Source of the DNA: Candidatus Latescibacterota bacterium
GTDB taxonomy: Bacteria > Latescibacterota > UBA2968
Direction of reading: 5' to 3'
Assembly (NCBI GenBank): GCA_965116885.1
Contig: OZ220741.1
Span: forward strand, 2,464,001-2,528,000
Length of the DNA stretch: 64,000 nucleotides
Below are positions 373 through 24,625 of the stretch, in pieces; positions within the stretch are counted from its first letter, which is position 1, and the number at the start of each line of letters is the position of its first letter. The position numbers and the translations under genes were made by a program. The notes beneath the pieces were generated by a model. The model did not search any database. It worked only from the letters and a program-made list of their open reading frames with translations, and had not been told where the DNA came from.

Positions 373-1542
373 CTAAAACTTGAATATTTTGCGTTCGGTT
401 TGTTCAAGGGTTTGTTCGATGAGGGGGGCGAGGTCGAGCGTGGATTCGATTTCGCGGACTTTTTCCAAATTGGCGCGCGTTTCGGGGTGTTTGGGGACAA
501 AGACAGAACAACAATCTTCGTAGGGTTCAATGGAGATTTGATATGTGCCAATGCGCCGGGCCTCGTTGATGATTTCTTCTTTGTTGTCACCGGCTAATGG
601 TCGCAAGATAGGCAGCGGGATAACATCTTCGATGACGCGCATGTTCGACAGGGTTTGCGAGGCGACCTGTCCGACGTTTTCGCCTGTGACGAGTGCCTGG
701 GCATTGACTTTTTGGGCTATGGCTTCTGCAATGAGAAGCATGGCGCGGCGGTAGAGAATGACGCGGTAGCTCGCAGGTGCTCGCATCATTATATGGCGTT
801 GAATTTCGACGAATGGCACCAGGTACAGGTCCGACACGTATTGATGCCGGGTGAGGAGTTGCACGAGGTCTTCGGTGTTGCGCTGGGAGTTGCGATTGGT
901 ATAGGGCTGGCTGTGAAAATGCACATAAGTCAATTTGACGCCGCGTTTCATAATTTTGTAAGAAGCTACGGGTGAGTCAATGCCCGAGGAGATGAGGCTT
1001 ACTGCGCGTTCATTGGATCCGACGGGCAAACCCCCTGGTGCCGAAATTTTTTCGGCGTAGATAAATATGCGTTGTGGGGCAATTTCAATAAAGCAGGTGA
1101 GGTCTGGATTGTCCATCAGGACGCGGGCACCCGACAGGGTTTGAATATGCTTGCCCACATCCCGATTGATCTGGTCCGAATTGAGGGGAAAGGTTTTGTC
1201 GCCGCGTCTGGTGACAATTTTGAAGGATTGAAAGTCGGTTTTTTGTGCAAGTGCCCAGGCTGTTTCTCGAATGGCTTCGATATTGCGTTTGGCGACCACT
1301 GCTTCGGAAAAGTTGGCGATGCCAAAGACTGTTGAGAGTCGTTCTCGGATTACATCTATCGGCGATTCTGAGGTGAGTGCGAGCATCATGCGGCCCGATA
1401 GACGTTCGAGCTTTCCGCAGGGTACGTCTTTGAGTGCGCGGTTGATGTTGGTCATCAGACGCCGTTCAAATTTGCCCCGATTTTTGCCTTTGAGGCCAAT
1501 TTCGTGATAGTGTATGAGTATGAAGCGGTCGTTGGTCGTCAT
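373..1542 (-). CDS. thiI: tRNA 4-thiouridine synthase ThiI
   Basis: HYHEIGLKGKNR N-terminus, THUMP domain, PP-loop SSGIDSPVA, SQTLSN, ILRPL, EDCC. Confidence 0.95.
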   Translation of the reverse strand: MTTNDRFILIHYHEIGLKGKNRGKFERRLMTNINRALKDVPCGKLERLSGRMMLALTSESPIDVIRERLSTVFGIANFSEAVVAKRNIEAIRETAWALAQKTDFQSFKIVTRRGDKTFPLNSDQINRDVGKHIQTLSGARVLMDNPDLTCFIEIAPQRIFIYAEKISAPGGLPVGSNERAVSLISSGIDSPVASYKIMKRGVKLTYVHFHSQPYTNRNSQRNTEDLVQLLTRHQYVSDLYLVPFVEIQRHIMMRAPASYRVILYRRAMLLIAEAIAQKVNAQALVTGENVGQVASQTLSNMRVIEDVIPLPILRPLAGDNKEEIINEARRIGTYQISIEPYEDCCSVFVPKHPETRANLEKVREIESTLDLAPLIEQTLEQTERKIFKF

Positions 1543-3122
1543 GAGATGGGTTGGGGATTAAGGGATAAATCGCGCTGGAGTATAACGAGGGTTATATCGT
1601 CGGTGCGCCGCGCGTTGCCAATAAAGGCTTTGATATTGGCGACGAGGTCGGCAATCAGGTCTGTGGGTGTCCGATCTATGGATGCGCGTTCGAGACAACG
1701 GACAAATCGGTCGTCGTCAAAGAAGTTGCGTTTGGCATTTTGGGCTTCGACAACACCGTCGGAGTAGAGCACAAGGCGATCACCGGGTGCGAGTGTTAAA
1801 TGTTCAACGCGATAGGGCGTTTGGGGGCGTACAAGTGCCGGAATGCCAAGGGGATATCCCGCGAGGTCGATAAATTGAGATCGGTTGGAAAGATGGATCG
1901 GTGGACAGTGTCCTGCACTTGCAAGCGTGACTTCGCCGGTGGGTACGTCGAGCACAGCGATGCAGCATGTGATAAATGTAGTCTGGTCAATCTGACCTTC
2001 CAGTGAGTCATTAAGACCGTCGAGAATATCGGCTGGCGCAACGCGATTTTGACATTCATAGCGGAGCATTTCATTGAAACGCACGGCGGTCACGGCTGCT
2101 TCCATGGCTTTGCCAGAGACATCGGCAACGACGATGCCGAGTTTTGTTTTGTCTTCATCCAACCAGCGGTACGTATAGTAATCCCCGCCGACGCTGTTGG
2201 CGGGAATACAGGTTCCGTCGATTGCAAAACCAGGCAGGTCGGGACTGGATTGTGGCAATAGACCCATTTGCATGTCGTGCGCTGTTTGCAATTCGTCGCG
2301 CATTTCCGAAAATTGTTGTTTGTAGCTCTCCCACTGTCGCGCTTCTTCGCAAAGGGTCTGGTTGTAGGCCGATGCAAAAATTCCGAGGGCGAGGGGTTGA
2401 AAGAGGACGAAGACACAGAGTTGGGCTAAGGCATTGTCGGTGATGCTGTCGGTGAGAGCGACTGAGCCTGCAAGAATTCCGAGCGCGGTGAGTATAAGCG
2501 CGCAGTGGCGAAAAAAGCCGTAGCGTTCTACAGCTTTGCGACTTTCGACATAGGCTTCATCGATGTGTACCCCCCGGTCTGCTGCCAGAAGATAGATATA
2601 GAAGCATTTGACAACAAAAATGAGGCCGGGTAAAAATAAGAGGCAAGCTGCCGGAATGACGGCATAATAAATAATATTTTTGTCTTCTAAGAATCTTCCA
2701 ATGTTTTCTGGTGCAGTGGGGATATCCCAGGTCGTTTCCCGAGCGACGACCTGTTTGAATGCATTGAGCAGGAATGCAAAGAAATCACTGTTCACAAAAA
2801 CCAGCGCCACAATGAGGGCGAAGCCGAGAATAAAAAACAGGAAGATAAAAATGTTCATCGAAAAAAAACGGACGAAACGAATGATCTGCCCAAATAGATC
2901 TCGCATATGGGGTTTTGCTCCTTGCTGCGCGCGCAAGATCATGATGGCAAAGCCAGCATATAAGCTGCCCAGGAGCAAAGTGCCCGATACCGCACTCAGG
3001 AGTATTGCCAAGAATGAAGCGAGGAACAAAAGGGGCAGGTGACTTGCCCAGGAAGATATGCTGTCGTTGAGACAGCGAAGGTATTGGAGATTTGCCCGAA
3101 CGGGGATATCGAGAGGAGCCAT
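1539..3122 (-). CDS. Membrane-bound PP2C/SpoIIE (RsbU-like) phosphatase
   Basis: Multi-TM N-terminus, coiled coil, VGGDYY, ADVSGK, YSDGVVEA, DDITLV motifs. Confidence 0.9.
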   Translation of the reverse strand: MAPLDIPVRANLQYLRCLNDSISSWASHLPLLFLASFLAILLSAVSGTLLLGSLYAGFAIMILRAQQGAKPHMRDLFGQIIRFVRFFSMNIFIFLFFILGFALIVALVFVNSDFFAFLLNAFKQVVARETTWDIPTAPENIGRFLEDKNIIYYAVIPAACLLFLPGLIFVVKCFYIYLLAADRGVHIDEAYVESRKAVERYGFFRHCALILTALGILAGSVALTDSITDNALAQLCVFVLFQPLALGIFASAYNQTLCEEARQWESYKQQFSEMRDELQTAHDMQMGLLPQSSPDLPGFAIDGTCIPANSVGGDYYTYRWLDEDKTKLGIVVADVSGKAMEAAVTAVRFNEMLRYECQNRVAPADILDGLNDSLEGQIDQTTFITCCIAVLDVPTGEVTLASAGHCPPIHLSNRSQFIDLAGYPLGIPALVRPQTPYRVEHLTLAPGDRLVLYSDGVVEAQNAKRNFFDDDRFVRCLERASIDRTPTDLIADLVANIKAFIGNARRTDDITLVILQRDLSLNPQPIS

Positions 3123-3127
3123 AGCAA

Positions 3128-4537
3128 TCAGGGTTTTTCTTTGTTGAGTTTGTATTTGCGGTACAGGTGGCGAAATTGGTCGTAGCTGAGTTTGAGTTGT
3201 TTGGCGGCTTCGCGCTGGTTCCAGGAGACTTTATCGAGAATGCGCCGCAATAGACTCAGTTCAAAGGATTGCACTTGTGATTCAAAGCCGTCGTTTAATT
3301 CGGGTGATTGGGGCACCTGTTGAGAAACTTCGGGTGGCAGATCGCCGGATTCAATCTCAGTTCCACGGGCGACACAGGCTGCGCGTTCGGCTGCAAATTT
3401 GAGTTCGCGCACGTTGCCCGGCCAGCGATATGTCATCAGGCGTTCTGTTGCCGCATCGGAAAAATCGCGTTTTTGAAGGCCCGGTACTTCCTCGACGATT
3501 TGCGCGACAAAATAATCGGCTAATGCGGGAATGTCTTCTCGGCGTTCGCGCAATGGGGGCATGTGCAAGACTTCAAAACGCAATCTGTCGTAGAGGTCCT
3601 GGCGGAATCGGCCTTCGGCAATTTCCGTTTCGAGATTGGTATTCGTGGCGGCAATAACGCGCACGTCGATAAAGATGGGTGTCGCGCTGCCCACGCGCTG
3701 GATTTCGCTATATTCTATGGCGCGCAATACGTTTTGTTGAAATTCGGGGGTGGTGTTGCCGATTTCATCGAGAAACAGGGTGCCGCCACTCGCGGCTTCA
3801 AATTTGCCCGTGCGGGCTTCTGTCGCGCCCGTATATGCCCCTTTTTCGTGTCCAAAGAGTTCACTTTCGAGCAATTGGTCGGCAATGGCGGCGCAATTGA
3901 CTTTGACAAAAGGACGGTCTTTGCGGTCACTGCCATAGTGGATGGCAGCGGCGACGAGTTCTTTGCCCGTTCCGGGTTCGCCCGTGATGAGCGCGGGCCG
4001 GGGGATGGGGGCTACGGTTTGCGCTCGCTGGAGAATTTGCTGGAGTTTGGGGCTGGAGCCGATGATTTGATAACGCTTGCCAAATTCGTCTCGGTAGAAT
4101 TGGTTTTCGCGCCCCAGGTCCTGAACTTCGGCTCGCAGTTGGGCGTTTTCTCTGAGTGCTTGATACACGCGGTCGAGTTTTTCAAGGCTGAGTTCGATCT
4201 TGTCTTCGATATAAAAGTCTTTTTCAATAAAGTCTGTTGCGCCCAATCGCAATGCAGCCACGGCAGTATCTATTGTGCCCTGGCCGGTGAGCATAATGAC
4301 GGGCAGGGCGGGGACCGCTTCGAGCATTTGCGGTAAAATTTCGAGGCCGTCGGGTTCATTGGGGCCGTAATCGAGGTCGAGAATGGCCAGACTAATCTGA
4401 TCGGGATACTGTTTGAGATGTGCCAGAGCTTCGCGCCCGGTCGAAAAGGCATGGACAGTGCGCGTGTCGTCTCGCAGGCTTCGAATTAGCATGTCGAGGA
4501 CTTCTATCTGGTCGTCAGCAACGATAATTTCGGTCAT
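3128..4537 (-). CDS. Sigma-54 enhancer-binding response regulator (REC-AAA+-HTH), PspF-like
   Basis: REC (ADD, LDLD, MLTG, DFIEK); [54 protein letters not shown] resembles the PspF C-terminus. Confidence 0.92.
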
Positions 4538-4559
4538 GGGAGCAATATTGAAAAGGGTC

Positions 4560-5822
4560 TTATTGAATAAATTCTTCTGCTATAGGATCGCGTGAGGTGT
4601 CGGGAACGCTGTGTTGCAGACCAATGCTGTCTTGTTGTGTTGAGACTTCAAAATCGACGGGCAGGTCAATGCGGAAAACCGCACCTGCGCCCGGGCGGCT
4701 GATTACGCGCAGTGTGCCGCGGTGTGCCGCTGCAATGCGAGAGCAGATACTCAGCCCATATCCATTGCCCCTTTCCCGCGTTGAAAATCCGGGGTCAAAT
4801 ATACGGGTTTGCAAATTTTCGGGAATGCCGGGACCATTGTCTTCTACTTCAATATATACCGAACTGCGCTCTGTATCAGCGCCGACCTGTACTGTTACCA
4901 CGCCATTGTCTTCAACGGCTTCGATGGCGTTGAGGGTCAGGTTTGTGACGGCTTCAGATAGCATGCCTGCATCCGCTTTTACCTGAGGTACATGAGGTTC
5001 GGCTGCAAATGTGAGCTCTTTTTGCCCTGCTCGTGCAGAGAGTTTGTGGGTCATTTTTTCAATGAGTTGGGGCACATCGACCAGCGCGGGGTTCATGGTG
5101 TCTTGTTTCATAGATCGCAAATAGGCAACCCACTGGTTGTAGATGTGTTCTTGTTCGTGCGCGATGTCTTTAAGATCATCCAGGCCGTGTGTATCTGGCG
5201 GTACATTGCGTATGGCGCGGCGCATTCGGCTGCCGGAGAGGCCCATCAGATTTTTGATGCGGTGGCCGTGCGTGTAGAGGCTTTCATAGACCTGGGCGCG
5301 GCCCAGGTCTATGAGTTCGAGAGAGAGCCGCGCGAGAATACCCGGTGCTCTAACACCAAATTCTTCGGTGATGCTTTCGTATTCGCGTTCCATTTGCGTT
5401 GAACTCATGTGGTGAAAGAGCAATCGAGCGAGATTACCATAGGGCAGCATGTAATCGGGTTCGAGGTGTATGGCGATTTTAAACTCGCCAAGTGCCGATA
5501 AAATTTGCCCATTTTGCATGAGCAAAACGCCCAGGTTGTTGTGCCCGGGCGCGAAGAGTGGATCGGCTTCTAAACCCCGGCGATAAATGGGAATCGCGCG
5601 AGATGCGTTTTCCGGAAAGTCATCGAGCAGGCTACCCAATAAAAAACAGACGCGGTCAATGAGGGCTTGTTCACCACCCCGGTTATCGACAGACAAAATG
5701 TATTCGAGGTGTTCAACCGCTTTTTTGTAGTCGTCTGAACCCGGTGTTGCCCCGCGAGCGTGTTGTAGGGCCGTTTGGAAACGGGATTCTATGTCCGGGG
5801 CTATGTTCAGGGTGTTGGTCAT
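4560..5822 (-). CDS. Soluble TPR-containing sensor histidine kinase
   Basis: TPRs (HNNLGVLLMQNGQ, YGNLARL); H-box HRIKNLM; NLTLNAIEA, EDNGPGIP, IFDPGFST, GNGYGL. Start moved to MTNTLN to avoid overlap with flotillin. Confidence 0.88.
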   Translation of the reverse strand: MTNTLNIAPDIESRFQTALQHARGATPGSDDYKKAVEHLEYILSVDNRGGEQALIDRVCFLLGSLLDDFPENASRAIPIYRRGLEADPLFAPGHNNLGVLLMQNGQILSALGEFKIAIHLEPDYMLPYGNLARLLFHHMSSTQMEREYESITEEFGVRAPGILARLSLELIDLGRAQVYESLYTHGHRIKNLMGLSGSRMRRAIRNVPPDTHGLDDLKDIAHEQEHIYNQWVAYLRSMKQDTMNPALVDVPQLIEKMTHKLSARAGQKELTFAAEPHVPQVKADAGMLSEAVTNLTLNAIEAVEDNGVVTVQVGADTERSSVYIEVEDNGPGIPENLQTRIFDPGFSTRERGNGYGLSICSRIAAAHRGTLRVISRPGAGAVFRIDLPVDFEVSTQQDSIGLQHSVPDTSRDPIAEEFIQ

Positions 5823-5844
5823 AGCAGTACTTGTGCGTTGTCGC

Positions 5845-7365
5845 CTACGCCTCTGCGTCTTCTGTGGTATCGGGTTTGTCATTTTCCCCGGACGTTTGTT
5901 CGCCGTTCATTTTGCCCAAAAATTCGGGTAATTCAAGCCCTGCCAGACGCGCCAGATCGTGCATGGGCGGTATGGCACCCATGAGGCGTTGTCCCAGGTT
6001 GGACATGCCACTGTCGCCATTGCCGCTATCCCAGACCATTACTTTGTCGATGGGCAGGTTGCTAATGGCCTCTGCCTGGATGTTGGCGACTTCGGTGAGG
6101 CGTTCGATGATCAGGAAGGCCGCTGCAGCTTGATCGTTGCTGCCACAGGCTTCAACGAGTTGTCTGTATCCTTCGGCTTTCGCGTTGAGAATGGCCTGAG
6201 TCCCCTCAGCTTCTGCCTGTTTTTGTGCGAGAATGGCTGCGGCTTCACCTTCGGCAATAAGCCGTCGCTGTTCTTTTTCGGCTTCTGCTTGAACGACCTG
6301 GCGCTGTTTTTCGGCTTCTGCCTGAACGACGATTTCTGCCCGCAAACGCGCTTCTTCGCGCAGTGCTCGGGCTTCTTCGGCTGCTTTTTCCGCGGTTTCC
6401 TGGGCGACGCGAATGGCACCGTCGGCACCTTTGGCCGCTTCTTCTGCTTTTCGGCGCGCTTCTTCTTCTGCAACGCGTTGCTGTGCGCGATAGCCCGCTG
6501 TTTTTGCTTCGGCTTCTGTTTCTGACTGTACGGCTTCTGCTTCGAGAGCGGCGACATTTTGGCGTTTGTCTCGCCCTGCCTCGGCTTCGCCAATTTCTGC
6601 TTCTGATTCGAGTGCGGCGACCTGTCGTCGTCTGTTTCGCGCGGCTTCGGCTTCGCCCACTTCGGCTTCTGATTCGGCTGCGGCGACGTCCCGACGGCGG
6701 TCGCGTGCGCGTTCGGCCACGCCGACCTGTCCGTGTCGCTCTTGCTCGGCCACGTCGATAGATGCCTGGTTCACGGCTTCAGCGGCAGCTTTTTGGCCGA
6801 TGGCTTTGATGTAGCCGCTTTCGTCGTCGAGGTCTTTGATGTTGACATTGATAACGGCCAGACCAATTTTTTCCATTTCAGTGGAGACGGCATCATTAAC
6901 TTTGGTCATGAATGCCTGTCGGTCCTGATTGATTTCTTCAATTTTCATGGTTGCAATGACTGCGCGCATCTGGCCGAGGATGATGTCCTGTGCCTGGCTC
7001 TGAATTTGATCGCGGGACAGGCCCAGGAGGCGGATGGCTGCGTTTTGCATGACGCCGGGCTGATTGGAGATGGCTGCTGTGACTGTGGTGGGCACGGATA
7101 CGCGGATGTTTTCCTGTGATAGCGCGTTGTCCAGGTCGATGGGTACGACAAAGGGTTCGAGGTCGAGGTACTCGTAATCCTGCAAAAGGGGCAGGACAAA
7201 TGCTGCGCCGCCGTGTACACATTTTGCGGCTGTGCCACCTCCTGTTTTGCCGTAGATGACGAGAATTTTGTTGGATGGACAGCGCTTGTAACGCGAGATA
7301 AATGTGAGGAACAGCAATAATACAACGGCTGATAGGAGTACGGTGAGAATGAATTCGGTGGGCAT
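5845..7365 (-). CDS. Flotillin / SPFH-domain protein (YqiK/FloT-like)
   Basis: N-terminal TM, RYKRCPSNKILVIYG, SPFH domain, long AE-rich coiled coil with 22-aa repeats. Confidence 0.93.
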   Translation of the reverse strand: MPTEFILTVLLSAVVLLLFLTFISRYKRCPSNKILVIYGKTGGGTAAKCVHGGAAFVLPLLQDYEYLDLEPFVVPIDLDNALSQENIRVSVPTTVTAAISNQPGVMQNAAIRLLGLSRDQIQSQAQDIILGQMRAVIATMKIEEINQDRQAFMTKVNDAVSTEMEKIGLAVINVNIKDLDDESGYIKAIGQKAAAEAVNQASIDVAEQERHGQVGVAERARDRRRDVAAAESEAEVGEAEAARNRRRQVAALESEAEIGEAEAGRDKRQNVAALEAEAVQSETEAEAKTAGYRAQQRVAEEEARRKAEEAAKGADGAIRVAQETAEKAAEEARALREEARLRAEIVVQAEAEKQRQVVQAEAEKEQRRLIAEGEAAAILAQKQAEAEGTQAILNAKAEGYRQLVEACGSNDQAAAAFLIIERLTEVANIQAEAISNLPIDKVMVWDSGNGDSGMSNLGQRLMGAIPPMHDLARLAGLELPEFLGKMNGEQTSGENDKPDTTEDAEA

Positions 7366-7386: not shown

Positions 7387-7986
7387 TTAAATGGGTTCGA
7401 CTTCAACAGTGGTTATGTCGAGTGTTCGCAATACGCGCACCGGCGTTTTGTTCTGGATGGGCAGCCCGTCTTTGCTGCGCGCAGAGATGTAGTTGACAGC
7501 CCCGCTTTCCATTACGCGGATTTGACCAGCGCCATTTTCGGGGATGTCGATATAGACTTCGCCTTCATTGCCGATGCAGGATGATAGGTTTCGGTTATGC
7601 GATTCGGAGAGTTGTTGCACTTTGTAGAAGAAGTACGCAACCAGGACCATCCCCGCGCCGCCCCATACGAGGCCGCGTAGAACCGACTCTTCGATTGAGA
7701 GGCCCAGGTCGAGGTAGAGTGCGCCTGCCCATCCAAAGAGCATGCCAAAGGCGATCACAGAGCGCAGTGAGAGCAGTTGAAAGGTTGCGACACCGTGATC
7801 ATAAGGACTATTATCGACATCTGGTCCTGCATCGTTGGCATTGAAGTCGTCGGCAAGGCCATCTGCGGAATCGCCCAGGCCGATGAGTGTTGTGATAAAT
7901 TGCCAGAGAAACAAAAGGGTGAAGAAGACAGCGCAGCCATAGAATGCCTGATTGAGAGGCGCGAGTTCTGACCACCATGCCTGCAT
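7387..7986 (-). CDS. NfeD-like membrane protein (YqiJ/YuaF-like), flotillin partner
   Basis: TM helices, LLSLRSVIAF, C-terminal OB fold (IGNEGEVYIDIP...GQIRV); GGAGG RBS before MQAWW. Confidence 0.88.
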   Translation of the reverse strand: MQAWWSELAPLNQAFYGCAVFFTLLFLWQFITTLIGLGDSADGLADDFNANDAGPDVDNSPYDHGVATFQLLSLRSVIAFGMLFGWAGALYLDLGLSIEESVLRGLVWGGAGMVLVAYFFYKVQQLSESHNRNLSSCIGNEGEVYIDIPENGAGQIRVMESGAVNYISARSKDGLPIQNKTPVRVLRTLDITTVEVEPI

Positions 7987-8121
7987 AATTAACCTCCAGA
8001 AATCGATTGCGCGTTTTATCAACTACTTTGGGCAGAGAAGTAGGAAACTGCGACGCGTGAACCTGTTATTCCTAAATTTGTCCATGAGAGAGGCGAAAAG
8101 CAAGGGTTATTTCTTATCCGG

Positions 8122-8712
8122 TCATCCGGGTTGTAAACCGAGTTTGCGAAATTCGCTTTTGAGTTGGCGACGGGCGCGGCACAGCCATGTTTTGACGGTT
8201 CCAAGTGGAACGCGAAGCGCCTGTGTGATTTCTTCGTAAGACCAGTCCATGACGTAGCGCAACCACATGGCTTTGCGATAGCGTTCGGGTAAGTTTTGAA
8301 TGCTTTTGTGGACCAATTGTATGCGTTCGCGTTTTTCGACTATTTGGTCTGGTAGCGCGCCGGGTATGAGGTCGCGGATGACGTTGCGAACGACTTCGGG
8401 GTCTTCGGTTTGATAGACCCAGTTTTGCCGAACTTGTTGCGAGCGCAGGTGCGAGCGATAGACGTTGAGGGCAATTTGCGTGAGCCAGGTCGAAAATGCT
8501 GCCTGGCCTTTGAATGTGTGAAGCGAGCGATAGGCGCGGAAAAATGTGTCTTGCATCAGGTCGTCAATGGTATCGCGGTCCGAAATGCGCTGTGCGAGGG
8601 TGCCGTAGATCTGGTTCTGGTATTTGTGGTAGAGTTTTTCAAAGGCTCGGCTGTCGCCCGAGAGGGATGCGCGAATCAGATTTTGATCCTGTGTTTTCAC
8701 TTTTTTCTCCAT
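8122..8712 (-). CDS. ECF sigma-70 factor (SigW/RpoE-like)
   Basis: GDSRAFEKLY, DLMQDTFFRAY, AFSTWLTQIALN, SYEEI..LGTVKTWLCRAR. Confidence 0.93.
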   Translation of the reverse strand: MEKKVKTQDQNLIRASLSGDSRAFEKLYHKYQNQIYGTLAQRISDRDTIDDLMQDTFFRAYRSLHTFKGQAAFSTWLTQIALNVYRSHLRSQQVRQNWVYQTEDPEVVRNVIRDLIPGALPDQIVEKRERIQLVHKSIQNLPERYRKAMWLRYVMDWSYEEITQALRVPLGTVKTWLCRARRQLKSEFRKLGLQPG

Positions 8713-8770: not shown

Positions 8771-8941
8771 TCAGTCTCTTTTGATCAAGCGATAACCGAT
8801 CATAATACATATAACGGCGATGGCGAGTTTGAGCAGGAGAAAGAGTAGCCCAAATAGAGAGCCGATGAGCGGGAAGAGAACCTGGATGGCGATAATGCCA
8901 CCGATGATGATGAGTACGATGCCGATGAGTTTTGCCAACAT
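8771..8941 (-). CDS. 56-aa two-TM small membrane protein (absent from ORF track)
   Basis: Hand translation MLAKLIGIVLIIIGGIIAIQVLFPLIGSLFGLLFLLLKLAIAVICIMIGYRLIKRD*; AAAGGA RBS; fills the operon gap. Confidence 0.8.
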   Translation of the reverse strand: MLAKLIGIVLIIIGGIIAIQVLFPLIGSLFGLLFLLLKLAIAVICIMIGYRLIKRD

Positions 8942-8972: not shown

Positions 8973-9332
8973 TCATTCCGAGATGGTTTGCGGAGGTGAA
9001 AGTGACTTAACGGGCGAGCGGCTTTCGAGACGCTCGAGTTTGTCGTCGTTGGTGATGACGATATCTTGAAGGTCGATGAGGCGTTTTTCAAGTTCTTTCA
9101 CGCGTTTTGATAGTTTTTCAGACAGGTTGTTGTTTTTTGTCGATTTGTTTCTTTTTTTATTTTCTGACTCAAATGCGAATACGAGGGCGACAATGGTAAT
9201 GATAGCCATGGCAACCCAGGCCGCCGCCAGGATGAGGCCACCTCCAAATGTTGGGTTTTCAATATAGGCAATTGTACCGCCTGCAAGAATAATTAGACTG
9301 ATACCAACCGTGAGTGAGAGAAAGATGCGCAT
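8973..9332 (-). CDS. PspB-like membrane protein with cytoplasmic coiled coil (paralogue 3)
   Basis: Two TM segments plus RVKELEKRLIDLQDIVITNDDKL; GGGAGG RBS. Confidence 0.7.
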   Translation of the reverse strand: MRIFLSLTVGISLIILAGGTIAYIENPTFGGGLILAAAWVAMAIITIVALVFAFESENKKRNKSTKNNNLSEKLSKRVKELEKRLIDLQDIVITNDDKLERLESRSPVKSLSPPQTISE

Positions 9333-9355
9333 GGTGCCCTCCCTGTTAGTTTAAG

Positions 9356-9589
9356 TTAGCGAGAAATAGGCGATCGCTCGAATTTTTCGTCAATGGTGAT
9401 GAGGATGTCCTGAATGTCCGTGAGTCTGCGGTCGAGTTCGTCCATTCTCTCATTCAAGCGTTTTTCCGCATCGCTGGGGATAGATCCTTTTGTGCGGCGG
9501 TCAATGTATTTGTGTACTGCTGATGCAATGGCTCCTACAATGATGATCAGCAATATGCCACCCATAGTGACACCAATAACATTAGTCAT
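9356..9589 (-). CDS. PspB-like single-TM coiled-coil protein (paralogue 2)
   Basis: TM plus RMDELDRRLTDIQDILITIDEK; AGGAGG RBS. Confidence 0.72.
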   Translation of the reverse strand: MTNVIGVTMGGILLIIIVGAIASAVHKYIDRRTKGSIPSDAEKRLNERMDELDRRLTDIQDILITIDEKFERSPISR

Positions 9590-9600
9590 GTTACCCCTCC

Positions 9601-9801
9601 TTATTTTCTGCTGAGTTTTTCGTCAATGGTGATCATGACGTCCTGAATGTCTGTGAGCCTGCGGTCGAGTTCGTCCATTCGTTCATTCAAGCGTTCTTCT
9701 GCATCGCTGGGGATTGAGCCTTTGGTGCGGCGATCGACGTATTTGTGTACCGCTGATGCGAGAATGATTATCGCTACCATGATTCCAATTTCAAACATCA
9801 T
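9601..9801 (-). CDS. PspB-like single-TM coiled-coil protein (paralogue 1)
   Basis: TM plus RMDELDRRLTDIQDVMITIDEK; near-duplicate of 9356..9589; GGGAGG RBS. Confidence 0.72.
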   Translation of the reverse strand: MMFEIGIMVAIIILASAVHKYVDRRTKGSIPSDAEERLNERMDELDRRLTDIQDVMITIDEKLSRK

Positions 9802-9822: not shown

Positions 9823-10494
9823 TTAGAGTTCATCCACGGGTCTCGCGCGGTGTTTTTCATCCCAGTGTTCGATTTCCGGAAAATGGTAAACGACGAGTCC
9901 CGAATCTGAGATTCGCATTTCCGCATGACCACTTATGGTTAATTCTCGCAGGATTTCTTCGGTTTTTTCAACTGTTATTCTGGTGTCCATAGCAGTTTCT
10001 GTCACGGTGAGGCTGCCCCCTTTATCCCGGGCGAGACGGAGTATGCGGTGCTGGTTTTTGGCATGTGCTTTTTTGTCTCCCGATCTTTTGACCTTGCGAC
10101 CTGCCCACCATATAATCTGAGAGATGATGATTAGCACGAGGCCGCCACTGAGTTCTTCGTGCATGAATGGGTTTGTGCCATCGACCCAGGGAGGATATTG
10201 TATCACTACCATGAGTACGAGCATGAGGCCGCTAAATCCCATAAGTGCAGCCATTCCTATTAAACCATAAGCGAAGAGATAACGCATGGCACAACTCCCA
10301 TCGGTGGCGAGGTCAGAGAGGCGGTCGGGCACGCGCTTGAATGAATTGGTTGCACTTTGGAAATCACTGCTCGCAGTGTGAACGCGCGCCTCCCAGTTTC
10401 CCCTCCATTTCTTTTTTATTTTTCGCTCCGCATCGTTGACCGCGCGGTCAATTTTGCTGGCGATTTCATCGGCGAGTTTTTCCAGGTCACGCAT
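9823..10494 (-). CDS. Membrane protein: N-terminal coiled coil, 2 TM, C-terminal winged-helix-like domain
   Basis: Overlaps pspA stop; C-terminal ILRLARDKGGSLTVTE..TEEILREL..GHAEMRISDSGLVVYHFP. Confidence 0.75.
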   Translation of the reverse strand: MRDLEKLADEIASKIDRAVNDAERKIKKKWRGNWEARVHTASSDFQSATNSFKRVPDRLSDLATDGSCAMRYLFAYGLIGMAALMGFSGLMLVLMVVIQYPPWVDGTNPFMHEELSGGLVLIIISQIIWWAGRKVKRSGDKKAHAKNQHRILRLARDKGGSLTVTETAMDTRITVEKTEEILRELTISGHAEMRISDSGLVVYHFPEIEHWDEKHRARPVDEL

Positions 10495-11164
10495 CTTTTT
10501 GTCCCATTTTCTTTTTTAGTGCACTGAGTTCGTCTTCTACTGTGCTTTTGCGCTCGAGTTTGGAGAATTCTTCTTCCAGAGAGGGGTCAGCACTCGCCAT
10601 TTCTTGATGGGCTTCGGCTTCGGCTTCTTCGGTTTCGATGCGCTGGCGGAATCGTTCAAAGCTCGAAAATGCGTCTTCACCCACTCCCGAGAGGCCCCTG
10701 GCGATTTGCTTGCGGGCTTCGGCTGCACGACGTCGGGCAATTAGAGTGCCCTGGCGGGTGCGGGCTTCGTCGAGTTTGGCTTTGAGTTGGGTGAGTTGTT
10801 GTTTGAGTTGGGACGAGGTTTTACGGCTTTCTTCGAGGGCGACTTCGAGGTCGTGTGTGGCTTCCTGATTTGCAGCTTTGCGTTCGAGGGCGCGGCGGGC
10901 AAGGTCGTCTTCGCCGGCTTCAACGGCTAATTCGGCTTTTTTTTGCCAGGCTTCTATTTGATCTTGTTTTTCGAGATATTGTCTTTCCAGGCGTTTTTCG
11001 TTGGCTACAGCCGTGCCAACCGAAGCAGTGGCTTTATTGACGGCTTCTTCCATTTCCAGAATCATCTGGCGGATCATTTTTTCCGGGTCTTCTGCGCGGG
11101 TAATCAGGTCGTTGACGTTGGCTTTGACGATGTCGGCCATTCTGTAAAAAATTCCGCGTGCCAT
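10487..11164 (-). CDS. pspA: PspA/IM30 (bacterial ESCRT-III) family protein
   Basis: GIFYRMADIVKANVNDLITRAEDPEKMIRQMILEM, GEDDLARRALERK, SLEEEFSKLE, VEDELSALKKKM. Confidence 0.96.
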   Translation of the reverse strand: MARGIFYRMADIVKANVNDLITRAEDPEKMIRQMILEMEEAVNKATASVGTAVANEKRLERQYLEKQDQIEAWQKKAELAVEAGEDDLARRALERKAANQEATHDLEVALEESRKTSSQLKQQLTQLKAKLDEARTRQGTLIARRRAAEARKQIARGLSGVGEDAFSSFERFRQRIETEEAEAEAHQEMASADPSLEEEFSKLERKSTVEDELSALKKKMGQKDA

Positions 11165-11232: not shown

Positions 11233-11248
11233 TGCAAAGTCTATGCCA
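11233..11248 (-). promoter_or_regulatory. Sigma-54 -24/-12 promoter of pspA operon
   Basis: Minus strand TGGCATAGACTTTGCA = GG-N10-GC, ~70 nt upstream of pspA ATG. Confidence 0.88.
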
Positions 11249-11322
11249 GGAGTGCGATGAGGTGTTAAGTGTTGTTTTTCATACACATAGATATTTTTTG
11301 AAATAGGATAGGTCGATAAAGT

Positions 11323-11359
11323 TGGTGAAAATTGCCATGTGTTCTGGCGAAAGAGACCA
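11323..11359. promoter_or_regulatory. Two PspF-type upstream activator boxes
   Basis: TGGTGAAAATTGCCA (11323-37) and TGGCGAAAGAGACCA (11345-59): TGG-N9-CCA, 22 bp apart, about -100 to -136. Confidence 0.65.
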
Positions 11360-11492
11360 AATTTTCCATTTTTGATCGGATATTTTTAGAGGGTCACATC
11401 TTGTCTTTTTTTTCTAAAAGGTCTATTATCTATCGGTTTGTCGCAAGTTGGTCTCAAATACCATCACTTTCACTCTATACACTGAATTTTTT

Positions 11493-20616: not shown

Positions 20617-21371
20617 CGAGACAATGCGGTGATTGGGAACTGGAGCGTTTTCGACTGGGTGAATTGCCAGAAGAAGAAATGGAAGCTATTCAAAGGGCGC
20701 TGGATGCGGATCCAGATTTGAGGACGCGTTTGGAGGCATTGGAAGGGTCAGATCGGGAAATTCACATGTCCTATCCGGCTGATTGGGTGGCGCAGCAGGT
20801 GGCGCGGCGTTTGCAGAGACGAGAGGTGCCGAGTATATCGCGGTTCGATCCGCGTTTTGCATTGGTCGCTGTGATTTTGCTGGCCGCTGTTTTTGCGATC
20901 TATTTGCCGGGGCCTGAAGTGCCGCCGACCTGGGATCGAAAAGGTGTGGATGGCATTCGGTTAAAAGGCGTAAAGCCGGATTTGTTGTTGTATCGAAAAA
21001 GGGCGTCTGAGGTTGAACAATTGGCGGATAGCAGTGTGGCTTATGCGGGTGATTTAATTCAGATTTTTTATCGCGCAGCGGGCAAGCCTTTTGGGGTGAT
21101 TGTGTCTGTGGATGGGCGCGGTACTGTGACGCGGCATTTGCCCGCTTCGGGAACAAGTGCCGTGCGGTTGATACAGGGCGATCCCGTGCCGCTGGATTAT
21201 TCTTATGAACTGGATGATGCCCCGAAGTGGGAACGGTTTTATTTTTTGACAGCAGATGCGTCTTTTGATGTGCGCGATGTGACACAAGCGGCAAAGGAAG
21301 GGCTCGATTCATTGCGGGTGGGAAGAGAATTTGAGCAGTTTGCCATTACGCTTTACAAAGGGGGCAGGTGA
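20613..21371 (+). CDS. Single-TM anti-sigma factor with extracytoplasmic DUF4384-like domain
   Basis: ATGA overlap with sigma; LERFRLGELP anti-sigma-type N-terminus, TM, RLKG, GDLIQIFY, VSVDGRG, YELDDAP. Confidence 0.8.
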   Translation: MTRQCGDWELERFRLGELPEEEMEAIQRALDADPDLRTRLEALEGSDREIHMSYPADWVAQQVARRLQRREVPSISRFDPRFALVAVILLAAVFAIYLPGPEVPPTWDRKGVDGIRLKGVKPDLLLYRKRASEVEQLADSSVAYAGDLIQIFYRAAGKPFGVIVSVDGRGTVTRHLPASGTSAVRLIQGDPVPLDYSYELDDAPKWERFYFLTADASFDVRDVTQAAKEGLDSLRVGREFEQFAITLYKGGR

Positions 21372-22933
21372 TGTTGCGCCGATGGACAGTACTGTTGGGG
21401 ATCGGTCTGCTGTTATGTGCTCAGGGAATTGAGGCATCACAAGTTGTGCGGCGTTTTGTGTTGGCGGCTGGTGCAAATTTTGGTGGGGAGAAACGCACGC
21501 CTCTGCGTTATGCCGTATCGGATGCAAAACATTTTGCTCGTGTTTTAAAGATGATGGGTGGGGTTGAATCTGAGGATCAATTTTTGTTGGCCGAGCCGAG
21601 TTTGGAAAATTTTAAACGGGTTTTGGTGGATTTGCAAACCCGGGTCATAAAAGCATCCCAATCGTCGAGTCGCATCGAAGTTGTCCTGTATTATTCCGGG
21701 CATGCCGATGAAAATGGGTTGCTGTTGGGAGAAGATCGGTTGACCTATCGCGCTTTGCGAGATGCAATGAATAGCGTTCAGGCGGATGTGCATATTACTG
21801 TGCTCGATGCGTGTGCTTCGGGTGCTATTACGCGCCTGAAAGGCGGGCAAAGGCAAAAAGCCTTTATGGTCGATACGTCGTCGGATATGCGGGGGTATGC
21901 GTTTTTGACTTCGAGTTCCGAAAATGAGGCTGCACAAGAATCGGATCGCATTCGCGGGTCGTTTTTCACGCATTATCTGGTGTCTGGCTTGCGGGGGGCA
22001 GCAGATGTGACTGGTGATGGTAAGGTGACACTCAGCGAAGCGTATGCGTTTGCATTTCGCAATACGCTGAAGCGAACGGAAAAAACTCAGGGAGGGGCAC
22101 AGCATCCGGCTTATGATATTAAGATGACGGGTACAGGTGATGTGGTGATGACCGATGTGCGAGAGACGTCGGCGAGTTTGATTTTGTCAGATGAGTTGAA
22201 TGGCCGATTTTTTGTGCGTAATTCGCAGGAGCAACTGGTGGCAGAGTTGGACAAGTCCGCCGGGCAAACGCTCGAGTTGGGATTAGAACCCGAGGTTTAT
22301 GACGTTCATTTTGAACAGCGAACGCAATTGTTGCATTCAAAGGTCGCTTTAAAAAGGGGTGAGCGGTTTTTGCTTGAGAATCGGCATTTTCGCTCTCAAG
22401 TGCGCGAAAAAACCACGAGCCGAGGGCCTGCGTTGAGGAAGCCAGCGACCGGGACATCTGCCCGCTATCCACACAGACTATCCGGCAGATGGCGTCTTGA
22501 ACGCAGTAGGGGTGCCTGGCAACTGGGGGATGATAGCAAAGCCTGGATTTTTGGATTCTGGCCCACGGAACATGTTTCGATCAACTATTCTCGTTCGGGA
22601 TTTTCGGTTGCTGACGATACAAAAACGGGTGTGTCATCGGAACTGGTCAGTCTGCGTATTTATATGCCTTTGAATATGTGGCGTTCACCTTTGCGCCCTT
22701 ATGCCGAAGGAGGCGTCGGTCGATACACGGGTAAAGTATTGGATGAGAATGTCGATGAAGTGAATGGGTTGTATTGGGGTGGTGGACTGGATGTGCCGTT
22801 TATGAAGTTTTTTGTTCTGGGTGGACGCATAGGCTATAACCGGTTTGTCGAGCCTTTTGCTGTGCCGGTGGATGGGCAAACGGATTATAGTGGAATGGAG
22901 TACAGCGTGGGGTTGGGGTTGTTGTTATTCTGA
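21368..22933 (+). CDS. Exported caspase-family (C14) protease with C-terminal outer-membrane beta-barrel
   Basis: Signal peptide; LRYAVSDA, YYSGHA (His), LDACASG (Cys), GSFFTHYL; amphipathic strands ending ...GLGLLLF. Confidence 0.85.
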   Translation: MMLRRWTVLLGIGLLLCAQGIEASQVVRRFVLAAGANFGGEKRTPLRYAVSDAKHFARVLKMMGGVESEDQFLLAEPSLENFKRVLVDLQTRVIKASQSSSRIEVVLYYSGHADENGLLLGEDRLTYRALRDAMNSVQADVHITVLDACASGAITRLKGGQRQKAFMVDTSSDMRGYAFLTSSSENEAAQESDRIRGSFFTHYLVSGLRGAADVTGDGKVTLSEAYAFAFRNTLKRTEKTQGGAQHPAYDIKMTGTGDVVMTDVRETSASLILSDELNGRFFVRNSQEQLVAELDKSAGQTLELGLEPEVYDVHFEQRTQLLHSKVALKRGERFLLENRHFRSQVREKTTSRGPALRKPATGTSARYPHRLSGRWRLERSRGAWQLGDDSKAWIFGFWPTEHVSINYSRSGFSVADDTKTGVSSELVSLRIYMPLNMWRSPLRPYAEGGVGRYTGKVLDENVDEVNGLYWGGGLDVPFMKFFVLGGRIGYNRFVEPFAVPVDGQTDYSGMEYSVGLGLLLF

Positions 22934-22945
22934 TTGGAGGGGAAT

Positions 22946-24625
22946 ATGTGCCGAATGATTTTGTACGCGATTGTCATTTGTTTTTTCATTTCTGAAATTG
23001 CGAATGCACAAGAAGATATGTCCAGTCATTTGGGTTATGTAGAGGTTGAATCACTGGATGTGTTCGAGGCCAGGAATGTCACTGTGGATGTGTCTATTGG
23101 ACAGTTGATGTTGAAGCAGGTCGCTGAAAAGGTCAGGAGTAAAAATGAAAAAGTCTGCGAAGCCTTATCAGATCTGAAGCTGGTGCGCGTGCATACTCTG
23201 TCGGTTGGTGAGATTGCAATGCGTATGGACAAAATTGTGCGATATTTAGATGCGATGGGTTGGGAGATAACCGTTCAGTCGTGGAAGAAACACGAGCGCG
23301 TATCGATATATTTCCAGAAGGAAGCGGATGATATTATTGGCCTGTTTGCAATGGTCCATGATCGCAAGGCTGGCACTTTAACGCTGGTCAATGTGGTTGG
23401 CGTTATTCAAGTTGATGAAATGGGAACTGTTGGTCGAGAATTAGAGGTGGAGGCGTTTGGTCGCATTGCTCGTTTATTGCCCGGATATAAACCGCCTGTC
23501 TCCCACATAGCACACCACCGCCTGGGTTCCTGGAAGGCGCATATTCCCCCATTTTCGAATATTTGGCGCGTTGATCACGAAGATTTTTTGGTGCGTTACA
23601 ATCGCGTGGATGGCGTTTTTATTGGCTGGCGCTTGCCATTGAAATATCGCTCCTCGCGCGGGGTGGCACACTATGGCGAAGTGGGGTATGGGTTTGGGAG
23701 TGATCGATGGGATTATCAGGCGGGTGCGGAGTTTTTTTCTTTTTCTGGTGCGTCAAAGGACAACATCGCTGGGCTGGGTTTTGAACTTCACGGGTTGACA
23801 AATACGCAAGATAATTGGCGAATTGATGAGATAGAAAATTCGATTTTTGCCTTTTTGTTGCGGCGCGATTTTAGAGACTATTATCGTCGGGAGGGTGCCA
23901 GTACTTATATTTTTCGGGATTTTGACCGGATGGTAGAGGTTCGGGCACAAGTGGGTGTAGATGTTTTTGAATCGATGCCCAATAGCATTTCCTGGAATCT
24001 ATTTGGCGATCGATGGGGCAGTCGAATGAATTTTCGGCCCAATCCAGAGATTGAGGCCGGGCAAATGCGGGGTGTAATGGGTACACTACAGTTAGATAGT
24101 CGTGCGAGCCGAAGGTCTCGACAGGGATGGCGTTTAATGGCACAGGCTGAGAAGGCAGGTGGTATTTTGGGTGGCGATTTTGATTTTGAACGCTATATCC
24201 TGGATGTGCGCCGCTATCAGTATGCGGGACGTGGAACCCAATTGAATTTGCGCGTTCGCGCGGGTACCGGACGAGGACATGTGCCCGTGCAATTTCTCTA
24301 TCGTCTCGGGGGTCCTTCTTCGCTTAGGGGTTATGGATTGAATGCTTATGAGGGAGATCGCATGGTGTTGTTTAATGCGATTTATTGGGTTGATGGCGAA
24401 GCGCATTTTAGGGATGATTGGCCTCTGGATGATGTTGGCATCGGTGTGTTTTTTGATGCGGGTAAGGCGTGGTTTTCAGATTGGGAGCCTGTTGGTACAC
24501 GGGTTGTGACGAGCGCGGGGTTTGGATTAAAGACCGATAATTTGCGCGTGTTTTTTGCCCGTCCGCTGGATGCGAATGATCCGGTTGATTGGCGGGTTTG
24601 GGTACGGTTTCGGCGGGCTTTTTAG
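22946..24625 (+). CDS. DUF4252-like domain fused to Omp85/BamA-like beta-barrel
   Basis: Signal peptide; LKLVRV..GWE..TLVNVVG; RYNRVDG, LGGPSSLRGY, FFDAGKAW; C-terminal Phe. Confidence 0.72.
   Translation: MCRMILYAIVICFFISEIANAQEDMSSHLGYVEVESLDVFEARNVTVDVSIGQLMLKQVAEKVRSKNEKVCEALSDLKLVRVHTLSVGEIAMRMDKIVRYLDAMGWEITVQSWKKHERVSIYFQKEADDIIGLFAMVHDRKAGTLTLVNVVGVIQVDEMGTVGRELEVEAFGRIARLLPGYKPPVSHIAHHRLGSWKAHIPPFSNIWRVDHEDFLVRYNRVDGVFIGWRLPLKYRSSRGVAHYGEVGYGFGSDRWDYQAGAEFFSFSGASKDNIAGLGFELHGLTNTQDNWRIDEIENSIFAFLLRRDFRDYYRREGASTYIFRDFDRMVEVRAQVGVDVFESMPNSISWNLFGDRWGSRMNFRPNPEIEAGQMRGVMGTLQLDSRASRRSRQGWRLMAQAEKAGGILGGDFDFERYILDVRRYQYAGRGTQLNLRVRAGTGRGHVPVQFLYRLGGPSSLRGYGLNAYEGDRMVLFNAIYWVDGEAHFRDDWPLDDVGIGVFFDAGKAWFSDWEPVGTRVVTSAGFGLKTDNLRVFFARPLDANDPVDWRVWVRFRRAF

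Follow-up and report, generated by a model that had tools for sequence, protein, structure and literature searches.

The window, by which we mean the whole stretch of 64,000 nucleotides that was analysed, carries on its minus strand a row of genes headed by pspA, which encodes the membrane-repair protein PspA. The subject of this study is the gene directly downstream of pspA, whose start lies inside the end of pspA; its product combines two transmembrane helices with a winged helix, and gene and product are referred to here as the winged-helix (wH) gene and the wH protein. The features of this gene row, listed from the upstream end, are the following:

11321..11361, minus strand: conserved upstream block with nested inverted-repeat character, candidate activator-binding site (UAS)
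11233..11248, minus strand: sigma-54-type promoter with the sequence TGGCAT-N5-TTGCA, 83 nt before the start of pspA
10487..11164, minus strand: pspA, 225 aa, matching PF04012 (E 1.4e-46) and TIGR02977 (E 2.9e-53, below the cutoff of this model)
10487..10494, minus strand: overlap of pspA and the wH gene, 8 nt, ATGCGTGA, with the wH start inside the pspA end
9823..10494, minus strand: the wH gene, ATG start, 223 aa, two transmembrane helices plus winged helix
8973..9801, minus strand: three tandem genes for small single-pass membrane proteins (66, 77 and 119 aa) with a common C-terminal helix motif
8771..8941, minus strand: hydrophobic protein of 56 aa
8122..8712, minus strand: ECF sigma factor (Sigma70_r2 and r4_2, E ~4e-16; TIGR02937 above cutoff)
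7387-8022, minus strand: NfeD-like protein (NfeD E 0.013, sub-threshold)
5845-7365, minus strand: flotillin/SPFH protein (Band_7, E 5.7e-28)
4560-5882, minus strand: histidine kinase with TPR and HATPase domains
3128-4537, minus strand: sigma-54 activator with a REC domain

The wH protein does not correspond to any family described in Pfam or NCBIfam, and no model of either collection is reached by the 223-aa protein of the window. A word-indexed search nevertheless retrieved 114 protein clusters that are 43-94% identical to it, the named ones being annotated as hypothetical protein in assemblies of Latescibacterota or Gemmatimonadota. Scanning genome contigs with the close-family alignment (A1) as the query yielded 45 syntenic loci, nearly all of them labelled Candidatus Latescibacterota; at one of these (L001), PspA is 100% and the wH protein 94% identical to those of the window, which places the window in that phylum. 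Given these clusters, these loci and a C-terminal domain modelled at a pLDDT of 89.6, the ORF at 9823..10494 is a genuine gene and not a chance ORF. It has no second winged-helix paralogue in the window or in the 45 loci, as judged by HMM search, and neither an Rfam family within the 64-kb window nor an ESM Atlas match at 0.9 or above was found. Supplements aside, we found no published description of a two-transmembrane, single-winged-helix family or of this Latescibacterota operon.

When the window proteins were matched to all ORFs of each locus, pspA was found directly upstream of the wH gene in 45 of 45, and the 8-nt junction, formed by the ATG of the wH gene and the TGA or TAA of pspA, is likewise present in all of them (in 43 loci by string, and in L025 and L045 from their ORF lists). 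The preliminary description of this DNA had noted that the gene overlaps the pspA stop, had claimed a genetic coupling to PspA and had proposed a census of pspA adjacency as a check; the 8 nt common to both ORFs and the unbroken adjacency bear this out, with the qualification that the 45 loci all come from one phylum, so that their synteny does not represent 45 independent observations. Over the same 30 loci, PspA is 71-100% identical and the wH protein drifts to 43-94%, with the pairing kept throughout. In several divergent loci (e.g., L028-L040), the ATG is not preceded by a Shine-Dalgarno-like run, which fits translation by re-initiation, and the arrangement of the two genes suggests that the wH gene is translationally coupled to pspA. 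Two loci show a damaged wH gene. At L025, its stop codon has been lost and the frame runs on. At L045, a deletion and a frameshift have left no more than a remnant of it beside pspA and the retained junction, so the wH protein would be dispensable there. Comparison of the wH-family and PspA alignments with hhalign found no similarity between them, and a complex prediction for PspA (A5) with the full-length wH protein (A6) gave a score of 0.01 (mark, 0.32), to be read as evidence neither way.

Upstream of pspA, the alignment of 12 upstream regions revealed a conserved TGGCAC-N5-TTGCA motif, which we take to be the sigma-54 consensus. This motif is situated 71-109 nt before pspA in 44 of the 45 loci, for a background of 0.034 per 300 nt, and the exception (L024) has merely 46 nt of upstream sequence present. 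The upstream block corresponds to conserved columns in the same alignment and is a candidate activator-binding site, as judged from its sequence; its nested palindrome was seen by eye and is absent from the output of the automated repeat search. Downstream of the wH gene, the order is small membrane proteins, the 56-aa protein, the ECF sigma factor, the NfeD-like protein, the flotillin, the kinase, the sigma-54 activator, and a SpoIIE-type phosphatase. The small single-pass proteins are found in most loci, in 1-4 copies, and the 56-aa protein is matched in 44 of 45, the stretch of L017 ending before it. Kinase genes are present in 40 of the 45 loci (the other five stretches end before the expected position), and the activator in 23 (elsewhere the sequence stretch ends first). 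Six loci are devoid of NfeD and flotillin, and there the kinase and the activator directly follow the sigma factor.

The classical Psp system is also expressed from a sigma-54-type promoter. The Latescibacterota operon shares with it a PspA encoded behind a -24/-12 promoter and a sigma-54 activator in the same gene row, although the activator differs from PspF, which is without REC control. PspB/PspC, LiaI and the mycobacterial PspM are small integral membrane proteins that are encoded beside pspA and bind or position PspA. The wH gene resembles PspB/PspC in its sigma-54-type promoter and in being a membrane protein gene next to pspA. Nevertheless, the wH protein matches neither the PspB (PF06667) nor the PspC models, and to our knowledge none of PspB, PspC, LiaI and PspM has a winged helix. 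The three small proteins of the window were also considered as PspB/PspC, since they give sub-threshold matches to PspB (E 0.045) and PspC (E 0.013); this assignment was rejected because 0 of 31 homologues match either one at E <= 0.05, and the likeness is therefore one of architecture only. An anti-sigma role of the wH protein towards the ECF sigma factor was considered as well and seems unlikely; no zinc-binding anti-sigma motif was seen in its sequence, and the wH gene does not lie beside the sigma gene. Apart from PspA, the operon encodes other possible ligands for a winged helix, namely the small membrane proteins, the flotillin and the NfeD-like protein, the TPR kinase and the ECF sigma factor.

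The wH protein itself can be divided into five segments:

10282..10494, minus strand: residues 1-71, N-terminal helix, predicted to be cytoplasmic, and conserved juxtamembrane motif with the invariant Cys68 (alignments A1/A6)
10096..10281, minus strand: residues 72-133, transmembrane hairpin with hydrophobic stretches at ~72-98 and 115-133
10054..10095, minus strand: residues 134-147, basic juxtamembrane linker after TM2
9880..10053, minus strand: residues 148-205, winged helix a1-b1-a2-a3-b2-b3, net acidic, pLDDT about 96
9826..9879, minus strand: residues 206-223, tail, conserved, comprising a short helix and an EK..A motif and ending in acidic residues

The first of these segments is specific to the PspA-linked subfamily and is missing in the wider family of ~150-aa proteins; its helix (residues 2-53) is modelled by AlphaFold at a pLDDT of 42-72, and the invariant cysteine of its juxtamembrane motif sits directly before TM1. 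The loop of the hairpin, predicted to be periplasmic, is short, acidic and free of Lys and Arg, and its length varies in the close family. Residues 135-147 of the linker carry a net charge of +4. Since this linker after TM2 is the sole basic stretch, the winged helix would lie in the cytoplasm, together with PspA, and by the positive-inside rule both ends of the protein are probably cytoplasmic. The full-length AlphaFold model has a mean pLDDT of 69, with helices at 2-53, 59-99 and 109-157 followed by a b-a-a-b-b arrangement and a last helix, and the model of residues 135-223, built on a 118-row alignment, reaches a mean of 89.6 and shows a canonical winged helix with a short C-terminal helix. 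The parts best conserved in the close family are the winged helix, the tail and the juxtamembrane cysteine motif; the tail is conserved in the wider family too, with helices modelled at domain residues 72-82. A membrane-anchored winged-helix protein had already been proposed in the preliminary description, and both halves of that proposal hold, the first by the two hydrophobic helices with a basic stretch after TM2, and the second by the confidently modelled fold, whose top Foldseek matches are all winged helices. The C-terminal stretch quoted there is indeed present at residues 149-206, but the protein continues for 17 residues beyond it.

Charge sets this winged helix apart from a DNA-binding one. 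Among 118 members, the winged helix plus tail is net negative in 90%, with a mean of -3.6; the share of members with a net negative charge is 69% for helix 3 and 86% for the wing. Such an acidic winged helix makes DNA binding unlikely, as far as can be judged from sequence. A basic recognition helix and a basic wing, as expected of MarR, ArsR or IclR regulators, are not the rule in this family, and none of the models that would indicate such membership is reached by the window protein.

As regards sequence relationships, the preliminary description had noted a resemblance to the winged helix of SNF8/Vps22, a subunit of ESCRT-II, and profile searches reproduced it. With a 118-row profile of the wider family (A4), human SNF8 (3cuq_A, 2zme_A) was the top match among PDB sequences (E 5.2e-5), the profile spanning residues 156-214 of 3cuq_A, which form its second winged helix (WH2), with one single-residue gap; the next winged helix in the list was SelB, at E 0.04. 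Two alignments composed differently from A4 again gave the WH2 of SNF8 as the best winged-helix match (E 6.2e-5 for profile A8 and E 1.8e-3 for profile A2). SNF8 was not found at E <= 10 with the close-family profile A1, and the yeast ESCRT-II chains, Vps25 and Vps36 were not found at E 10 with A4 or at E 1 with A2 and A8. A Foldseek preference for ESCRT-II, which had been named earlier as a check, did not emerge. Neither the full nor the domain model had a match in the PDB at E <= 0.001; the lists were headed by MarR, CadC, TFE, AspA, IclR, Z-alpha and BT2368, with ArsR also among the winged helices, and SNF8 ranked 37th (full model) and 41st (domain model). No other entry, however, superposed with a smaller rmsd than SNF8, for which it was 1.5 A over 60 columns at 27% identity. 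When the 118 members were compared with Pfam one by one, 7 matched EAP30 weakly (best E 0.0042), fewer than matched SelB-wing_1 (24 members), MarR_2 (17), EutK_C (15) or HTH_IclR (15). The window protein gave nothing at E <= 1 with EAP30 (PF04157) or with the ESCRT-II/Vps25 models.

The earlier idea of an ESCRT-II-like protein thus stands in part: among solved structures, the WH2 of SNF8 is the best winged-helix sequence match for three profiles, though not for the close-family one, whereas a structural preference for ESCRT-II is absent, the protein lies outside the EAP30 family, and the models contain one winged helix per protein (residues 148-205) as opposed to the two in tandem of ESCRT-II subunits. 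Makarova et al. (PMC10936438) assign the recruitment of ESCRT-III within ESCRT-II to Vps25, the subunit to which Vps22 attaches by its C-terminal domain. A likeness to the WH2 of Vps22 alone is therefore not enough to predict binding to ESCRT-III; what it indicates is a protein-binding winged helix and not an ESCRT-III binder.

Several known systems join a membrane protein or a winged helix to a member of the PspA family. The closest in concept is VIA1, which resides in the thylakoid membrane, is predicted to span it with three helices, and has two winged helices through which it binds VIPP1; mutations in its wing loops weaken VIPP1 binding and abolish its function, and an algal VIA1 mutant is complemented by cyanobacterial and plant orthologues (PMC13505992). 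Both VIA1 and the wH protein are membrane-embedded winged-helix proteins tied to a protein of the PspA/VIPP1 family (ESCRT-III superfamily), the tie of the wH protein coming from genomic evidence, and remote searches with both winged helices give a Snf8/Vps22-like signal, yeast Snf8 being reported among the top BackPhyre matches of VIA1 (bioRxiv 10.1101/2023.10.10.561251). However, as compared by published description and not by sequence, VIA1 has three predicted transmembrane helices together with an N- and a C-terminal winged helix, whereas the wH protein has two, a single C-terminal winged helix, a tail and an N-terminal helix. Furthermore, operon coupling is not part of the published description of VIA1, where binding to helix 1 of VIPP1 was tested by mutagenesis, while the wH gene overlaps pspA and its product would be the partner of a canonical PspA in a non-photosynthetic phylum. 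The available text of the review by Williams and Low contains the term VIA1 0 times (PMC7619361).

The likeness to ESCRT-II itself consists of a probably protein-binding winged helix encoded beside an ESCRT-III-family protein, together with the match to the WH2 of SNF8. ESCRT-II subunits are, however, soluble proteins with tandem winged helices assembled into a Y-shaped heterotetramer (PMC10936438), contrary to the single winged helix on a hairpin found here, and the two hydrophobic helices of the wH protein are at odds with a soluble subunit. The same source states that PspA genes often adjoin winged-helix genes in bacteria and archaea, and that the ESCRT system in its ancestral form probably included a winged-helix protein. 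It also reports archaeal winged-helix genes (e.g., arCOG11741) upstream of an ESCRT-III gene, a position read as a sign of interaction; these archaeal systems, compared by description and not by sequence, include Vps4 and differ in gene order and architecture. PspA partners listed by Ravi et al. (PMC11237479) include PadR-type wHTH regulators and the winged helix of Asgard ESCRT-II. Finally, in the sigma-W pspA operon of Bacillus subtilis, SamG/SamH recruit an SPFH protein, and it is this protein that brings in PspA (PMC13713150, PMC8581546). SamG/SamH (YdjG/YdjH) resemble the wH protein in being membrane proteins of a pspA operon that is part of an ECF-sigma stress regulon and also encodes an SPFH protein (PMC13713150), but SamG has a zinc finger and SamH a TPM domain, and the published descriptions on which this comparison is based mention a winged helix in neither.

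The explanation that we favour, and to which we would give an even chance of being correct, is that the wH protein is a membrane-embedded partner of PspA, made in step with it from a sigma-54 stress operon, with an acidic and probably protein-binding winged helix plus tail in the cytoplasm. According to this mechanism, the wH gene would occupy the second place in a psp-like operon for envelope stress that is driven by sigma-54, and its translation would probably take place by re-initiation at the pspA stop, which would keep the production of the wH protein in step with that of PspA. The protein would reside in the inner membrane, with its N-terminal helical region on the one hand and its winged helix and tail on the other, all cytoplasmic, joined by the transmembrane hairpin. 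The acidic winged helix would then be exposed on the cytoplasmic side of the membrane, as a site at which PspA could be received, held or released. By analogy, it may act on PspA much as VIA1 does on VIPP1 in cyanobacteria and chloroplasts; the parallel with the ESCRT-II winged helix and ESCRT-III is a looser one. A protein-binding role of this winged helix, with PspA as its ligand, is what we infer.

The recruitment of PspA to the membrane and the way in which it is switched on are known for only a few model bacteria. Moreover, the bacterial roots of the ESCRT-II/ESCRT-III partnership have been raised as a question in the literature (PMC10936438), with VIA1-VIPP1 as the first experimental case (PMC13505992). 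The locus presented here would be a second, simpler and genetically tighter case, consisting of one winged helix on a hairpin and a canonical pspA in a non-photosynthetic phylum, and, as its compact operon encodes its own regulators, the pair of PspA and wH protein is small enough for direct reconstitution. The VIA1-VIPP1 pair and the general neighbourhood of PspA and winged-helix genes are already in print; the novelty of the present case lies in its architecture, in a canonical PspA as partner, in the non-photosynthetic phylum and in the overlap of the genes.

An alternative explanation would make the wH protein a stress sensor or signal relay instead of an anchor. Its hairpin would respond to changes in the membrane, and its winged helix or acidic tail would contact the regulators of the operon, for instance the soluble TPR kinase acting on the sigma-54 activator; alternatively, PspA would serve as the go-between. 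A relay of this type has a classical counterpart in E. coli, where PspB/PspC free PspF from PspA. The sigma-54-type promoter present in 44 of 45 loci and a gene row ending in a TPR + HATPase kinase and a REC + sigma-54 activator would suit this role, and, since no hydrophobic segment was seen in the sequence of the kinase, an input from the membrane side would be needed. In addition, even the six loci free of NfeD and flotillin retain the kinase and the regulator together with pspA and the wH gene, and conservation extends to the tail and its acidic end; acidic C-terminal peptides are frequent ligands of TPR domains. However, members of the wider family, for which no link to a TPR kinase is known, have the conserved tail as well, and the tight overlap of the wH gene is with pspA, whereas the kinase gene lies 4-6 kb away. 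We consider the sensor role unlikely.

Slightly less likely still, in our view, is a scaffold role, in which the wH protein would hold together the small single-pass proteins, NfeD and flotillin and touch PspA only indirectly, in analogy to SamG/SamH in B. subtilis. Such a scaffold would find its components in the operon, which has a flotillin, an NfeD-like protein and 1-4 small membrane proteins, and it has the published precedent of Bacillus (PMC13713150; PMC8581546), but six loci keep pspA and the wH gene without NfeD and flotillin, and the gene overlap is, once again, with pspA. As for a membrane-tethered DNA-binding regulator of the MarR/ArsR type that would control the operon, it is hardly credible: even though DNA-binding winged helices (MarR, CadC, AspA, IclR and TFE) are the top Foldseek matches, MarR_2 and HTH_IclR are matched weakly by 17 and 15 of the 118 members, and 2 of 66 wider relatives score above the cutoff of a generic wHTH model, the acidity of helix 3 (69% of the 118), of the wing (86%) and of the winged helix plus tail (90%) speaks against it, as do the lack of a match of the window protein to curated DNA-binding families and the presence, in the operon itself, of a sigma-54 activator and an ECF sigma factor.

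Beyond the PspA-linked subfamily, the locus reveals a large, as yet unnamed family of winged helices anchored in the membrane. An exhaustive phmmer search of 1.84 billion representatives returned 521 proteins at E <= 0.001, of which 23 were found at <= 1e-10 and 7 at <= 1e-30. The description of this wider family rests on the best 150 of the 521, 66 of which were scanned against Pfam. Most of these proteins are ~130-180 aa long; they share the winged helix and the tail, have two hydrophobic helices and begin without the N-terminal 70 residues of the wH protein; the named members include Bacillaceae. Among the 66 relatives scanned, the winged helix had no Pfam model of its own, and domain fusions were found to TMEM43 (3 proteins), RDD (1), zinc ribbons (1) and DUF6232 (1). 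Profile A8 had no longer relatives among proteins of 799-2280 aa, a range outside which VIA1-like and EAP30-like proteins of 260-800 aa would fall.

We regard as quite improbable, though far-reaching, the proposal that this wider family with two transmembrane helices, a winged helix and a tail (at least 521 clusters) is the bacterial counterpart of the Vps22-type winged helix, a receptor fixed in the membrane that seeds or positions PspA (ESCRT-III) polymers where the membrane is damaged and of which VIA1 would be one branch. If this were true, the partnership between winged helix and ESCRT-III would predate the split of bacteria and archaea and would not be an archaeal invention. When plasmids and phages were searched by tblastn with six queries, one plasmid locus emerged, on the Nostoc plasmid AP018319.1. 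This is the sole wider-family neighbourhood that was read, and no pspA lies within 6 kb of the family member there; the encoded protein scores 68.6 bits against the family HMM and adjoins an SNase-like nuclease.

The sigma-54-type motif that precedes pspA is retained in 44 of the 45 related loci in which this gene lies directly upstream of the gene for the winged-helix (wH) protein, a protein with two transmembrane helices. In its loose form, the motif is matched 14 times in the whole window, against 3.1 matches expected from shuffles. The features of this gene row, in window coordinates, are the following:

11321-11361 (-), conserved upstream block in front of pspA
11233-11248 (-), sigma-54-type promoter in front of pspA
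10291-10293 (-), invariant Cys68 of the wH protein
9826-9879 (-), C-terminal tail of the wH protein, acidic and conserved
8973-9801 (-), small single-pass membrane proteins, three paralogues in tandem (66, 77 and 119 aa)
8122-8712 (-), ECF sigma factor, within the operon
5845-7365 (-), flotillin
1539-5882 (-), end of the gene row: histidine kinase with TPR repeats, REC and sigma-54 activator protein, and SpoIIE phosphatase

No recognisable anti-sigma gene adjoins the ECF sigma factor of the operon, and control of this sigma factor may be exerted through its transcription from the sigma-54 promoter. The end of the flotillin gene overlaps the start of the kinase gene by 38 nt, and no hydrophobic segment was seen in the TPR histidine kinase on reading of its sequence. 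The C-terminal half of the flotillin, as translated, contains a long repetitive stretch rich in Ala, Glu and Arg.

As an idea only, the operon's kinase (4560-5882 (-)) and the wH protein could form a candidate peptide-TPR pair, the kinase through its TPR domain and the wH protein through its acidic tail. Cys68 is located at the cytoplasmic edge of the first transmembrane helix, within a conserved motif that is restricted to the PspA-linked subfamily. The wider family to which this protein belongs is large and unnamed, sharing the two transmembrane helices, the winged helix and the tail, with 521 representatives at E <= 0.001 (the best 150 including proteins P0119-P0258); among the matches listed, some members carry TMEM43, RDD, zinc-ribbon or DUF6232 modules fused to the wH domain. 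The gene for one member, on a Nostoc plasmid (L046 5947-6372), adjoins a nuclease gene.

Two of the pspA-linked loci carry an altered wH gene. In L045 (5975-6200), it is reduced to a frameshifted remnant, with pspA and the 8-nt overlap at the junction retained, and in L025 (5956-6738) it has lost its stop codon, and the encoded protein is extended by about 30 residues.

All three small single-pass membrane proteins have a C-terminal helix motif in common, and their number ranges from about one to four copies depending on the locus. In one locus (L022), a TM2-domain protein occupies their position. Elsewhere in the window, 21368-24625 (+) encodes a Peptidase_C14 protein of the caspase family and, after it, an Omp85/DUF4252 protein.
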